From Escherichia phage CMSTMSU: a stretch of 64,000 bases of DNA. The position numbers and the translations under genes are program-made. The DNA lies in sequence record MH494197.1; one strand, given 5' to 3'. Below are positions 7,355 through 48,633 of this stretch, one piece after another. The notes beneath the pieces were generated by a model. It saw only the letters and a list, made by a program, of their open reading frames with translations, was not told where the DNA came from and searched no databases. Within the stretch, counting starts at the first letter, position 1; the number at the start of each line of letters is the position of its first letter.

Positions 7355-7381
7355 CATTATACAGTACTGAATGAGTTTGTC
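7355..7381 (-). promoter_or_regulatory. sigma-70 promoter, TTGACA-N16-TATAAT with CAGTACTG in spacer
   Basis: minus strand TTGACAaactcattcagtactgTATAATg. Confidence 0.65.
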
Positions 7382-7384
7382 AAC

Positions 7385-18168: not shown

Positions 18169-18196
18169 ATTATACAGTACTACAAACGTTTGTCAA
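18169..18196 (-). promoter_or_regulatory. sigma-70 promoter, TTGACA-N16-TATAAT
   Basis: TTGACAaacgtttgtagtactgTATAATg. Confidence 0.6.
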
Positions 18197-20007: not shown

Positions 20008-20261
20008 TATATAAGTTCTATTTCATACGAACCTGCCGAGGATCTATCATAAAACACAATTTCAGTACTGATTATTTCACTACCATCACTTCGTTCATGA
20101 AAACATACATCGGCATATCGTTTACCATTGGGCTTCAAAATCTCATGAGTTGTTTTACCATAACATTTATCAGTTTCAATGTGAATTTTGTCTTGATATT
20201 CAGAACGTCTTACATCATTTCCACGATTAAACAATAAGATCAACAACTCATTAATATCCAT
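19983..20261 (-). CDS. hypothetical protein
   Basis: 92-aa ORF. Confidence 0.45.
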   Translation of the reverse strand: MDINELLILLFNRGNDVRRSEYQDKIHIETDKCYGKTTHEILKPNGKRYADVCFHERSDGSEIISTEIVFYDRSSAGSYEIELIYCRFRNTQ

Positions 20262-20515
20262 TATTTCGCCTCGATAACCTTAAGGTTAACAAAATCACCT
20301 TTTACTTTCATGCATTTGAATTCAGTGCGAGTTTCATCCCCACTATCGCGAGGCCAATGAGTAGCAGAGTAGCACTGGTCAGGCGTTTTATATACACCTT
20401 CACCAATAGTACGAGTGATCTCACCATTGGTGAGAACTACTGCGAGATATAAAGTAAGCATGGGAATTCCTATAAAATTTATTAATAATAATAGCACCCA
20501 AACCAAGTACTGCAA
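20261..20515 (-). CDS. membrane/secreted protein
   Basis: 84-aa ORF, hydrophobic N-terminus. Confidence 0.4.
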   Translation of the reverse strand: MQYLVWVLLLLINFIGIPMLTLYLAVVLTNGEITRTIGEGVYKTPDQCYSATHWPRDSGDETRTEFKCMKVKGDFVNLKVIEAK

Positions 20516-20610
20516 TAATTGAAGATACCCACATTACCGCATTCACTGCACCAGTAAGTTCTTTATCAAACTCCTGCACTTCTTGCGGTAATCTTCCCAC
20601 TCTTTGTTAT

Positions 20611-20826
20611 TCACACTGCCACTCCTAATAGGTCGGTAGCTTTCTTCAGTACTACGTCAATTGTTTCCAGTACTGCACCTTTGTGTTCAATTGATACAAT
20701 ATTATTATAAGTATCAAGGTCCAAGTACTCCATGTATTCAGTTTTGAATACACGAACATCAGTACTAGTGATTTTAATATCACAACCTTTATCCCAAATA
20801 ACCTGCATCATTTCATTGGTAGTCAT
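20611..20826 (-). CDS. hypothetical protein
   Basis: 71-aa ORF. Confidence 0.4.
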   Translation of the reverse strand: MTTNEMMQVIWDKGCDIKITSTDVRVFKTEYMEYLDLDTYNNIVSIEHKGAVLETIDVVLKKATDLLGVAV

Positions 20827-21083
20827 TATTCAACCTTATCATAAACAAGTTTGTGTGTGCTTAGTACTTTGTTGAGATGTCGGGCATTCATATACATACA
20901 ATCGCTCTGACGTTTTTCCCAACCACCACAGATACGACCTGATTGTGTACATATTTCATACTCGTTAATAAAAGACTTACCTGTGAATGTACAATCCTGA
21001 CGAACTAAGTCTTTTGCACTAAACCTGCCGTCATCATTACATGCTGTAAGAAACATTGTACAGAATACAAAGACCACAGTCAA
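20826..21083 (-). CDS. putative lipoprotein
   Basis: N-terminal MTVVFVFCTMFLTAC lipobox-like. Confidence 0.5.
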   Translation of the reverse strand: MTVVFVFCTMFLTACNDDGRFSAKDLVRQDCTFTGKSFINEYEICTQSGRICGGWEKRQSDCMYMNARHLNKVLSTHKLVYDKVE

Positions 21084-21460
21084 TAGTTTTTAATCATTGA
21101 ACATCACCCCAACGGAAGCCCTTCATATAATTCAAATTCACCTCAACTAGTTCATGTGTTTTGTACACCAAATTGAGAGAGTTTTTGTAACATCACCGGT
21201 TCAGATTCATAATTCACACAATACCCTTCGATTCGGAGAACATTGTTAGTCCATGACTCCACTCAATCCAAATTTCATTTGGATAATAAACCATATCTTC
21301 GTTGAACGTATGGAATTGGTCCATTGGTAAGTGACCTTCAACTTCAATTACTTCAGCACTTCGTGCCAGTTTTCAAGCTTGTACTTTATTTCAGCAAGAA
21401 ATTCTTCATTATTCAGACGAGTTAAATCACCTGCTACACGTGTTGTATCAAGGCTCATTG

Positions 21461-21706
21461 TTATTCTCCATGAATTACGGAAGTGTTGATTCGTGTTTTA
21501 CCGCTAGTGTATCCAGTACTTGTATTTGCATTAGGACAATAAACTGTATACAAGGTTACGTCAGCACCGTCCTTTTGCATACGATAAATCTTACATCCGG
21601 CTTCTTTTAATTCAGTCGGGAGAATAAAATCACTTGTGCGTTCTTTGGTTGAAGCATCACATGCAGTGAGTAAAAATGCGACGAGTACTGCTACGATATA
21701 TTTCAT
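21461..21706 (-). CDS. putative lipoprotein
   Basis: N-terminal MKYIVAVLVAFLLTAC lipobox (LTAC); start overlaps stop of upstream gene. Confidence 0.55.
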   Translation of the reverse strand: MKYIVAVLVAFLLTACDASTKERTSDFILPTELKEAGCKIYRMQKDGADVTLYTVYCPNANTSTGYTSGKTRINTSVIHGE

Positions 21707-22014
21707 TAACGAACCTCCACTTCTTGAGAAAGAGCATGAGTCAGTGCATTTGAATTCGAACCATTCATTTCACGCTGACATACAAACATAATGGCATCTT
21801 GTACTGAACCTGCGATTTCATACTCACGACCTTCTGGATCAGTTACCAGATGTTCAACGATACAACCACCTCTCAGTACAGAAGCACCAGTACTTACACT
21901 AATTCTGTAACCTAAGAAATCAAACTGCATACATGCGTCAGTAGGTTTCATCCAATAACCGCTGTTTTGATTCAAATCGATGATTACAAAACCTTGAGTG
22001 TTAGTTTGAAACAT
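21706..22014 (-). CDS. hypothetical protein
   Basis: 102-aa ORF directly downstream of consensus promoter. Confidence 0.55.
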   Translation of the reverse strand: MFQTNTQGFVIIDLNQNSGYWMKPTDACMQFDFLGYRISVSTGASVLRGGCIVEHLVTDPEGREYEIAGSVQDAIMFVCQREMNGSNSNALTHALSQEVEVR

Positions 22015-22106: not shown

Positions 22107-22134
22107 ATTATACAGTACTGATATCTTATGTCAA
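22107..22134 (-). promoter_or_regulatory. sigma-70 promoter, TTGACA-N16-TATAAT
   Basis: TTGACAtaagatatcagtactgTATAATg. Confidence 0.6.
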
Positions 22135-22230
22135 GTATTAATCACCAAAAATCATCAGATACCCAAACCAACCCACACAGATGACTAAGCTAACAATACC
22201 AAAGATAATCTCTAAAGTCATGTTACATCC

Positions 22231-22431: not shown

Positions 22432-22635
22432 ACTTTACCCTTATTCGTTGATTACGTCAAGTACTTTGTCCAGTTTCTTACCAATACTATCCTTTGGTTT
22501 ATCACTATTCTGGAATACATTAGTACTGCAATACTCAGGACGGGTATTAGGAAACTTCTCGTTCATCCGAGTGACCATATACACCAAGAATGATACCTAC
22601 GATAAGAATGATGATTTGCATGATATATCCTCTAA

Positions 22636-22917
22636 TTAAATTACATACGGTTTATAGTAATGAATCTCGTTTGCGATTGCAGTGAAAACTTTATTATTAA
22701 ATCTTTCACCATAATCACGAAGTGATTCACCTTCTTCGCTTTCAATGAAGTAATTATATACTGGTAGACGTGCGGTGTCAACACCTATAAATGATTTCAT
22801 GTAAATTTGTACTAAACGATTCATTCCTTCATTTAAGCATTGCACCTCAAAGTGCTTGATACCTTTGTCTAAGTGTTTGAATGCATTCATGATACCACGT
22901 TTAAAATCACGCTGCAT
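22636..22917 (-). CDS. hypothetical protein
   Basis: 93-aa ORF. Confidence 0.45.
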   Translation of the reverse strand: MQRDFKRGIMNAFKHLDKGIKHFEVQCLNEGMNRLVQIYMKSFIGVDTARLPVYNYFIESEEGESLRDYGERFNNKVFTAIANEIHYYKPYVI

Positions 22918-28843: not shown

Positions 28844-29307
28844 TCATTCAAAACCTCTGTATTTTTCATATACTTCAACACATTCCATGATCTTGTCATC
28901 ATCGGTCATGTCATAACCCTGAAGAAATTCTTCTTTATCAACCTTAGCAGCCATCATGTCACCATCCGAGATCCTCGAATCATAGAATGTGTACATATCT
29001 TTATAGTACTGCTTGTTGTGCTGTTCATCCTTAACCTTAGCATACCCAGCACAAAACGATGGCGATTTGACTACATTCCATTTATGCTTTTTGATAGGCT
29101 TATCATTAGCATGTTTTTCACGGTATTGCTGGCGGTAACGTTCACGCATCTCAGGCATGTATTCTTCAGCAGTACGTTTTGGTTGGGCTTTCCTGTTCCA
29201 ATCGTCTTGATTGTTTGACGCTGGTCTTCCGCATGTGCTGGTGCAACAAAGCAGGAAGTACTGAATACAACAGCAGTGATTACTAGAAAGTGTTTAAACA
29301 TAATCAA
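28844..29307 (-). CDS. secreted protein, frame-disrupted
   Basis: signal peptide MIMFKHFLVITAVVFSTSCFVAPAHA (ORF 29071..29307) continues into ORF 28844..29158. Confidence 0.45.
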
Positions 29308-30195: not shown

Positions 30196-30216
30196 ATTAT
30201 ACCAATGGAGGGATGA

Positions 30217-30489
30217 ATGTCAAGATCGATTGCTGCTGCTGGACGATATAAGTTCGGTGAATGTGGTTATATAGTCGATGGTGCAATTCTCAACGATGGG
30301 ACTAAACTCAAAAATGTTCGAATCTATCGTCAGAGAAGCCATAGATTATATGATTTACTTGATCCTGTAAGTAATGTAATTTATCGTAAAGTACAAATTA
30401 CAACAAAGGATATACAAGGATATCAATTAAACTACAACAAAACTAATGACCAAATCCTAAGTGAAATAAGAAAGAACTCTTTTTCGTAA
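30217..30489 (+). CDS. hypothetical protein (90 aa)
   Basis: GGAGG RBS 6 nt upstream; one of only two credible plus-strand genes. Confidence 0.6.
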   Translation: MSRSIAAAGRYKFGECGYIVDGAILNDGTKLKNVRIYRQRSHRLYDLLDPVSNVIYRKVQITTKDIQGYQLNYNKTNDQILSEIRKNSFS

Positions 30490-37112: not shown

Positions 37113-37237
<125 letters not shown>

Positions 37238-41473: not shown

Positions 41474-41671
41474 TTACGGTTTACTATTTTTACGTTTTTC
41501 TGATTCGGGTACAGTTTTCATTTCACCAATACATAGTTCCATGATGAGTACACCTTTGTCATTATAACGTACTACATCTTCAATGTCAAAATGTCTCGCA
41601 CTATGAACAACTTCAATACATGCATCATCGGGATATGATTCCAATAATGCTACAAGTTCTGCTTTAGTCAC
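41474..41671 (-). CDS. hypothetical protein
   Basis: 65-aa ORF; GAGGAA RBS; promoter upstream. Confidence 0.45.
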   Translation of the reverse strand: MTKAELVALLESYPDDACIEVVHSARHFDIEDVVRYNDKGVLIMELCIGEMKTVPESEKRKNSKP

Positions 41672-46234: not shown

Positions 46235-46441
46235 TTACAAGGTTCCTTTCATAAAGTCAGGGATAACGATTACGATAGAAGGATTATACTCCACATATCC
46301 ATTCTTTGTCAATAGACTTTTGATATCAGAAATAACATTATCATGTTGTTCCATATCTTTATCGCAGTGAATTTCCAATTCTTTTAGGAAAGGTTGTTTA
46401 ACTGAAATTGATTGGGTCAGTGTTTGAATACGCTGCATCAT
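46235..46441 (-). CDS. hypothetical protein
   Basis: 68-aa ORF. Confidence 0.4.
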   Translation of the reverse strand: MMQRIQTLTQSISVKQPFLKELEIHCDKDMEQHDNVISDIKSLLTKNGYVEYNPSIVIVIPDFMKGTL

Positions 46442-48117: not shown

Positions 48118-48633
48118 TTGATTAATATAGGAGTATTATACATACTCCATTTTCATGTGTCAAGCTTTATAATACGGAAGACTTTTCACTAAAGATTCTG
48201 ACGTATTATTTTTACCCATGTACTACCGTTGTCATTGGATACATATCCAATACCATTAACAAACTTACGCATAATACCAGTAAAAATATTAGTATACACC
48301 ATTACTCAGTATCCTTTGGTTTAGAATGTAAACCATACTTTTCATCATAACGATCATAGGTAGTGCCATTAGTACTAGTTTTGATGCTTTCGGTGCGATT
48401 GATTGGTTCGATTTTGACACCACGATAACCAATCTCTTCTTTAAATTGTTCCCATGATTCACGTAGACTCATTTTAGTCCCTTTTTGTTATTTCATACAC
48501 TCACGTAGGTCAATCTTTTCAACTGAACCACCGAGTACTAGATAGTGAAAATTAGAATCTTTGTTTGCCATATTCAAAAGATCTGCTTTCTGTTGAAGCG
48601 TAAAGCGTGAAGTACTGTTACGTACTGGCATAG

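Follow-up and report, generated by a model that had tools for sequence, protein, structure and literature searches.

Superinfection exclusion by receptor masking is described for T5 Llp and the Cor proteins of T1, phi80, and N15, which constitute PHROG 1119, and for Rtp45. All of them are small periplasmic proteins that have a lipid anchor and an intramolecular pair of Cys residues. Exclusion of this type operates from the inner leaflet of the outer membrane, where the protein binds the phage's own receptor from the periplasmic side and prevents adsorption. In the T1 record, cor lies between tail genes, and the gene for Rtp45 follows Rtp44, the gene for the receptor-binding protein. Other envelope-located proteins block DNA entry or the tail lysozyme after adsorption, namely T4 Imm and Sp, TrbK of RP4, and Ltp of the Streptococcus phage TP-J34. 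They are early or constitutive, and TrbK and Ltp are membrane-tethered lipoproteins, whereas T4 Imm and Sp are not lipoproteins. In addition, a small lipoprotein encoded by a phage very often turns out to be an o-spanin, i.e., an Rz1-like outer-membrane lysis subunit. Here, two small genes, lipoA and lipoB, were analyzed that are located on a stretch of 64,000 nt from Escherichia phage CMSTMSU (MH494197.1), which is called the window throughout. A sequence-only reading had proposed that both genes encode small lipoproteins and that these might block the phage's own outer-membrane receptor. The first proposal was supported by the lipobox rule and by the comparison with related genomes, and the second was not supported.

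The closest relatives of the window, as identified by megablast, are the Asteriusvirus (PBECO4/121Q-like) jumbo coliphages, and the top matches were fEgEco12 and vB_Ec-M-J with about 96% identity. The lipobox was evaluated with our own regular expression for a rule of the PROSITE PS51257 type (Lys or Arg within the first seven residues, an uncharged h-region, [LVI][ASTVI][GAS]-C, and the Cys at positions 15-35). The lipoA gene (21461-21706, minus strand) is intact and encodes a prolipoprotein of 81 amino acids (aa). Its ATG start codon is preceded by a GGAGG Shine-Dalgarno motif 8 nt upstream. The N-terminus reads MKYIVAVLVAFLLTAC, followed by D (DAS... after the cleavage Cys), so that residues 1-15 form the signal peptide, the lipobox is L-L-T-A-C16 with the Cys codon at 21659-21661, and Asp occupies position +2. 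All elements of the rule were present, i.e., Lys2, the uncharged h-region AVLVAF, and L-L-T-A-C with its Cys as residue 16. The mature protein comprises 66 aa and contains the invariant residues Cys23 and Cys42 (mature numbering). Compared with the relatives, lipoA has zero indels, and the 81-aa form ending with ...HGE was also found in other genomes.

The lipoB gene turned out to be damaged in the window. As written, it is an open reading frame (ORF) of 85 aa at 20826-21083 on the minus strand, which starts with TTG and begins with MTVVFVFCTMFLTAC, followed by NDD..., with the lipobox Cys at position 15. TTG is a weak start codon, and since both Lys and Arg are absent from the n-region, the ORF fails the rule at this point. 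The full gene extends from 20826 to 21097. In the relatives it encodes a prolipoprotein of 91 aa, which begins with MIKKLLTVVFVFCTMFLTAC, then N (NDDG), and has the charged n-region with Lys3-Lys4. The h-region and lipobox read FVFCTM-FL-T-A-C20 (C15 in the ORF of the window), and the Cys codon is at 21039-21041. The alignment with fEgEco12 and vB_Ec-M-J placed the true ATG at 21095-21097 and revealed that an A6 run is short of one A at about 21091, which lets the window read MIKNY-stop. The missing charge is therefore explained by the deletion of a single A. Furthermore, 1 nt is missing at 20907/20908 and 2 nt are missing at 20881/20882. Therefore, 26 nt (20882-20907) are out of frame, and the window has WEKRQSDCMYMNARH where the relatives have WEKRQERLYVYECPGH. 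In total, the three deletions removed the ATG and the Lys-Lys start and scrambled 9 internal codons. A database protein of Escherichia phage CMSTMSU carries exactly the frameshifted lipoB stretch of the window. In summary, both ORFs are present on the minus strand at the positions of the sequence-only reading and have a hydrophobic start ending in L-T-A-C, but for lipoB the start codon and the n-region of the window are not those of the gene.

Such damage is not confined to lipoB. The 122-aa gene located between the two lipoprotein genes is shattered as well, and over about 38 kb aligned with fEgEco12 (window 1-41798), 197 gap events were counted, which corresponds to a small indel roughly every 220 nt. 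In 151 of the 197 events the window lacks 1 nt, and of 149 single deletions, 101 affected homopolymers of 4 nt or longer (mostly 4-7 nt). The genome of CMSTMSU was assembled with Canu from MinION reads, and the announcement mentions no polishing (PMC6256653). Because the same deletion bias runs through the whole window, the defects of lipoB and of the 122-aa gene were attributed to sequencing error and not to pseudogenization. The A-run of lipoB was also considered as a site of programmed frameshifting, which was rejected for the same reason. Many ORFs of the window are artificially broken. Reading the window at face value is unsafe, as uncorrected nanopore deletions disrupt genes about every 220 nt, and due to their frequency all ORF-based findings in the window need a comparison with relatives.

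The comparison with relatives also decided whether the two ORFs are genes at all. Among the 1193 combinations of start codon and ORF that the window offers at a length of 40 aa or more, 20 fitted the relaxed lipobox expression, and the pattern alone is thus not rare. Together with the missing ATG and the internal frameshift of lipoB and the shattered middle gene, this could be taken to mean that the lipobox ORFs are chance matches or decaying pseudogenes without function. This view is scarcely tenable. The damage fits the excess of 1-nt deletions and the draft character of the MinION/Canu assembly, and both genes were intact and under purifying selection in 8 of the 8 relatives with better sequence quality that were compared. 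The ratios of nonsynonymous to synonymous substitution rates (dN/dS) in these 8 Asteriusvirus genomes were 0.12 for lipoA and 0.17 for lipoB, and values from 0.05 to 0.33 were obtained for neighboring genes. The lipobox Cys is conserved in 39 of 39 aligned members of the lipoA family and in 7 of 7 lipoB homologues. Based on this conservation and on the purifying selection, both genes were judged to be real, and the prediction that they are conserved genes for small secreted lipoproteins is strongly supported. Orthologous hypothetical proteins are already in the databases for dozens of Asteriusvirus genomes, and the two families have catalogue entries as PHROG 902 and PHROG 31263. In the phAPEC6 record (MK817115), both lipoprotein ORFs are intact (locus L017, 828-1103 and 1471-1716), yet neither is annotated.

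The lipoA protein is a clear member of PHROG 902, which it matched with E-values of 3.1e-14 (full length) and 1.4e-7 (mature part). An exhaustive phmmer search with mature lipoA as query yielded 67 representatives with E < 1e-3. All of the 39 members that were aligned have a signal peptide, a lipobox at the aligned Cys, and two more invariant Cys residues, and 37 of the 39 mature sequences matched PHROG 902. The family signature is LPxEL..CK[IV][YF] ... VVxCPN.xT.T..GK, with three invariant Cys in the aligned members. A precomputed Pfam tag, PF16225 (DUF4884), is attached to every family member (P0001-P0143) with E <= 1e-5, and it was not reproduced by a local hmmscan against Pfam-A, even at E <= 10. 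The AlphaFold2 model of lipoA consists of a short helix and four strands, with a predicted local distance difference test (pLDDT) score of 63. PHROG 902 is annotated with 'unknown function', and the membership in this group of uncharacterized, DUF4884-tagged phage lipoproteins, with which lipoA shares the signature, explains little. On a metagenomic phage contig of 193 kb (loci L010/L011, 6294-6620), a gene of the lipoA family is directly followed by a gene for a lipoprotein of 108 aa that weakly matched the same profile (E = 1.1e-5) and is probably its tandem paralogue.

The lipoA family is widespread. A tblastn search retrieved at least 566 phage records, and the hosts of the gene include Asteriusvirus, Vequintavirinae, Felixounavirus, Erwinia jumbo phages, 114-kb Vibrio phages, Acinetobacter phages (including the T4-like Acj61), and Serratia myophages. 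Temperate phages were not among the matches listed. Three further lineages were inspected, represented by a Felix O1-type phage, a Certrevirus, and a 114-kb Vibrio phage, and in each of them the homologue of lipoA resides among small genes beside genes for DNA polymerase, ligase, or helicase. All nine Asteriusvirus lipoA sequences have Asp at position +2 (Cys-Asp-Ala). Asp at this position is a signal for the avoidance of LolCDE (PMC5727369), and the Asp+2 rule thus predicts that lipoA is retained in the inner membrane. One further candidate for the family, a T1-like 'DUF4884' protein that coexists with Cor (Henu8), was not confirmed; T1-like phages were absent from the matches listed in four tblastn queries, and no member was found in T1.

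In contrast to lipoA, homologues of lipoB are confined to Rak2-like jumbo phages. The lipoB protein matched PHROG 31263, which is also annotated with 'unknown function', from end to end with an E-value of 1.6e-50, and the copy of the window differs from this group of orthologues by the three deletions. The orthologues have identities of 94-100% within Asteriusvirus and of about 40% in Munch, SE_PL, fENko-Kae01, and EJP2. Invariant residues are C1, C17, and C53 (mature numbering). The residue at +2 of lipoB is Asn (Cys-Asn-Asp), and Cys-Asp-Asp occurs in two homologues. The Asn+2 of lipoB predicts sorting to the outer membrane. Around the last invariant Cys, both proteins have a short beta-strand-Cys-Pro motif ('RLYVYECPG' in lipoB and 'TLYTVYCPN' in lipoA). 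A homology of lipoA and lipoB, as suggested by the common "YVYxCP"/"VVxCPN" motif, was unsupported, as hhalign gave a probability of only 3.6%.

With regard to the time of expression, a consensus promoter for sigma-70 with an extended -10 region, TTGACA-16 nt-TGTATAAT, was found at 22107-22134 on the minus strand. It occupies the sole sizeable intergenic gap upstream, at a distance of 93 nt from the gene that opens the operon, and is identical in fEgEco12. Because of this perfect promoter, lipoA and lipoB are probably early genes, and they are probably transcribed by the host RNA polymerase soon after infection.

From these features, a pathway can be proposed that combines the lipobox rule with lipoprotein biogenesis in E. 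coli. The precursors of lipoA and lipoB would be exported by Sec, the lipobox Cys would be modified with diacylglycerol by Lgt, the precursor would be cut by signal peptidase II (LspA), and the new N-terminus would be acylated by Lnt. The products would be beta-rich periplasmic domains of 66 aa (lipoA) or 72 aa (lipoB) on a tether of about 10 residues, and the invariant Cys pair of each domain probably forms a disulfide. Both proteins may be early modifiers of the envelope of the infected cell. Acting in the periplasm independently of any receptor, lipoA might block a step of the superinfecting phage after adsorption, e.g., penetration by the tail tip or genome entry; alternatively, it might shield the envelope. 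Imm and Sp of T4, TrbK, and Ltp would be analogues in function only. The TrbK model TIGR04359 scored 15.2 bits (cut-off 23), and this match includes the signal peptide. If one of the two has a lineage-specific target in the outer membrane, lipoB is the more likely one, given its restriction to Rak2-like jumbo phages. Superinfection exclusion in a broad sense is possible for the pair, and for an early protective or exclusion function at the envelope that acts after adsorption we tentatively put the probability at about 0.3.

Several observations weigh against such a function. No homologue of known function backs a specific activity, given that PHROG 902 and PHROG 31263 carry no functional annotation. 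The structure models are weak (pLDDT 63 for lipoA and 47) and yielded no informative fold match. A signal of gene-wide diversifying selection, which would be conceivable for an exclusion factor in an arms race, was not observed in the 8 genomes. The early timing was inferred from the promoter consensus alone. Lastly, the +2 residue varies. Asp+2 was found in 20 of 39 members of the lipoA family, the homologue gp90 of the Felix O1 type has Asn, and others have Ser, Thr, or Glu; inner-membrane anchoring can therefore not be a family-wide requirement. The lipoB homologues likewise have Asn or Asp at this position.

The competing explanations differ mainly in the proposed target. Masking of the phage's own receptor, as by Llp, Cor, and Rtp45, is what the sequence-only reading had favored. 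In line with it, the two proteins resemble Llp, Cor, and Rtp45 in size (6-8 kDa for the mature proteins), lipid anchor, and invariant Cys pair, and Llp of T5 is likewise an early product of a virulent phage. In GenBank records of relatives, 'Cor superinfection exclusion protein' is used as a name for lipoA, and 'lytic conversion lipoprotein' as a name for either gene. Full-length lipoA indeed matched PHROG 1119 (E = 1.5e-3, residues 1-50), as did 3 of the 39 full-length family members, and hhalign of the full-length lipoA family with Llp gave a probability of 82%, spanning the signal peptide and a short C-x-x-Y-x-M-Q stretch. However, upon removal of the signal peptide, none of the 39 sequences matched PHROG 1119 (E <= 0.01), and the hhalign probabilities for the mature proteins dropped to 1.5% with Llp and 0.2% with T1 Cor. 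The positive controls still matched PHROG 1119 in their mature form (Llp 1.4e-11, T1 Cor 1e-20); the Llp sequence had been checked against PDB entries 8a60 and 7qjf, and that of Cor came from the T1 record. Mature lipoB matched PHROG 31263 only and not PHROG 1119. Because the similarities vanish without the signal peptide, the Cor and Llp labels of the relatives are artefacts that stem from similar signal peptides. The label is also unreliable as fEgEco12 carries 'lytic conversion lipoprotein' on g556, a protein without a lipobox Cys. Furthermore, neither lipoA nor lipoB adjoins a gene for a tail fibre or receptor-binding protein. The second Cys is located near the C-terminus in Llp and Cor, whereas the two Cys of lipoA are 19 residues apart, and lipoA differs from them also by its predicted inner-membrane retention signal (Asp+2). 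Its family is common to phages of very different kinds, i.e., Felix O1-like, rV5-like, and jumbo phages, a range that is hard to reconcile with a plug for one receptor. As a receptor in Asteriusvirus, flagella have been suggested for SHEFM2K (PMC11895373). On balance, receptor masking of this type is improbable for the pair. It is somewhat more plausible for lipoB, with its predicted outer-membrane sorting and its lineage restriction, than overall, and for lipoA an Llp/Cor/Rtp45-like allosteric masking of an outer-membrane receptor seems less likely than a receptor-independent role in the periplasm.

A second alternative is that the proteins inhibit or modulate an envelope enzyme of host or phage, e.g., a peptidoglycan hydrolase, lysozyme, protease, envelope-stress sensor, or envelope defence, and thereby serve host takeover, anti-defence, or lysis timing instead of excluding other phages. 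The probably early expression, the vicinity of other small membrane proteins, and the occurrence of the family in virulent phages whatever their host receptor would fit a conserved periplasmic target, and small, probably disulfide-bonded beta domains would be shared with many periplasmic inhibitors. One family member gave a non-significant match to the protease inhibitor Inh (E = 0.11). Significant similarity to inhibitor families was not detected in the Pfam and NCBIfam scans, in which lipoA, lipoB, and their neighbors yielded nothing above the cut-off, and a conserved partner gene was not found nearby at the loci inspected. The profile of the lipoA family did not match any PDB sequence either (best E = 1.4). 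Such a role is doubtful. Very little speaks for one of the lipoproteins being an o-spanin. One of the 39 full-length family members matched an Rz-like spanin PHROG (6.9e-4), and this match was also lost without the signal peptide. There is no adjacent or embedding i-spanin, no neighbor combines an N-terminal transmembrane segment with a periplasmic coiled coil, and neither endolysin nor holin genes are nearby. The early sigma-70 promoter of the operon, the Asp+2 of lipoA, and the replication genes next to its homologues in other lineages also argue against a lysis subunit, which makes this assignment very unlikely.

The gene order in the relatives is 102-aa gene, lipoA, 122-aa gene, lipoB, and 71-aa gene, and the starts and stops overlap or nearly abut. 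The first gene of the operon (21706-22014, minus strand, 102 aa) belongs to PHROG 26720 of unknown function; its product has neither a signal peptide nor a transmembrane segment, and its stop codon overlaps the start of lipoA. The remnant of the 122-aa gene (21094-21458, minus strand, PHROG 22236) has four 1-nt deletions that split it into three ORFs of 36 aa. It is intact in the relatives, where it either overlaps lipoA or is separated from it by no more than 2 nt and where it also overlaps lipoB. The protein has no signal peptide and no transmembrane segment (maximal Kyte-Doolittle hydrophobicity over 19 residues 0.21) and is presumably cytoplasmic. A functional module of lipoA, the 122-aa gene, and lipoB was considered and rejected. 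In EJP2 the homologues of lipoA and lipoB are about 29 genes apart, and when 2.5 kb around the homologue of lipoB were examined in EJP2 and Munch, neither phage gave a match to the lipoA family there. This separation, together with the non-exported middle protein, indicates that lipoA and lipoB are independent genes.

The surroundings consist of small hypothetical early genes, an HNH endonuclease gene, and a gene for a phage sigma factor. Ten perfect TTGACA-N16-18-TATAAT sites were found in the window, all on the minus (coding) strand, compared with 0.14 expected by chance. Besides the operon promoter at 22107-22134, they are located at 2655-2683, 7356-7383, 18169-18196, 22753-22781, 30196-30223, 37142-37169, 41561-41589, 46283-46312, and 48135-48163. 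The motif CAGTACTGTATAAT is common to several of the ten, and the site at 22753-22781 apparently lies within the HNH endonuclease gene. The window looks like a long early region that would be read by the host RNA polymerase from many consensus promoters.

Additional small secreted or membrane proteins were noticed. Just upstream of the operon promoter, an unannotated hydrophobic ORF of 27 aa, MTLEIIFGIVSLVICVGWFGYLMIFGD (22138-22221, minus strand), may encode a small membrane peptide; it is present in fEgEco12 with two Ile-to-Val changes (locus L001, 3525-3741). Transmembrane segments were predicted at the C-terminus of g530 of fEgEco12 (48 aa; locus L001, 1970-2116; window about 20421-20600) and at the N-terminus of g523 (60 aa; locus L001, 3952-4134; window about 22441-22620). 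The ORF at 20261-20515 of the window adds a hydrophobic N-terminal extension to a homologue of g531, which may be an indel artefact. The protein g556 of fEgEco12 (MFKYVLFSLVLFTDIVYSTEYQC..., locus L003, 31199-31450) was rejected as a third lipoprotein, as the lipobox Cys is absent; in this record, the presence of a signal peptide in a small protein seems to have sufficed for the label 'lytic conversion lipoprotein'. An ORF of 76 aa at 29071-29301 (minus strand), MFKHFLVITAVVFSTSC-FVAPAHA-EDQ..., fits the relaxed lipobox expression, but its product is more like a substrate of signal peptidase I that is cut after AHA, and it may be another small secreted protein. Between 22015 and 22230 of the window, a segment of about 350 bp has been inserted or deleted among the relatives (loci L002, 3525-4090, and L013, 2025-2591). 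The segment, with an extra ORF of 279 nt (e.g., EcMJ_511), is present in vB_Ec-M-J, PBECO4, UB, and phAPEC6, and the window lacks it, as do fEgEco12, ph0011, and Ecwhy_1.

As the evidence stands, lipoA and lipoB are an ordinary pair of conserved hypothetical genes, and the 'Cor' and 'lytic conversion lipoprotein' labels that are spreading in Asteriusvirus annotations are no evidence for masking of a FhuA-type receptor. Nevertheless, lipoA marks a large, probably early, uncharacterized lipoprotein family of virulent phages. It is a long shot, but PHROG 902 might represent an unrecognized widespread class of early periplasmic lipoproteins, often tethered to the inner membrane in enterobacterial phages, which would provide exclusion after adsorption or envelope protection whatever the receptor and would be mechanistically unlike Llp, Cor, and Rtp45. 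Its users would be virulent myoviruses (Asteriusvirus, rV5-like, Felix O1-like, and Acinetobacter phages) and 114-kb Vibrio phages. If lipoA indeed confers receptor-independent exclusion or envelope protection, Llp and Cor would be joined by a second class with a different mechanism, and the finding would bear on the design of cocktails from phages of the Felix O1, rV5, and jumbo types.

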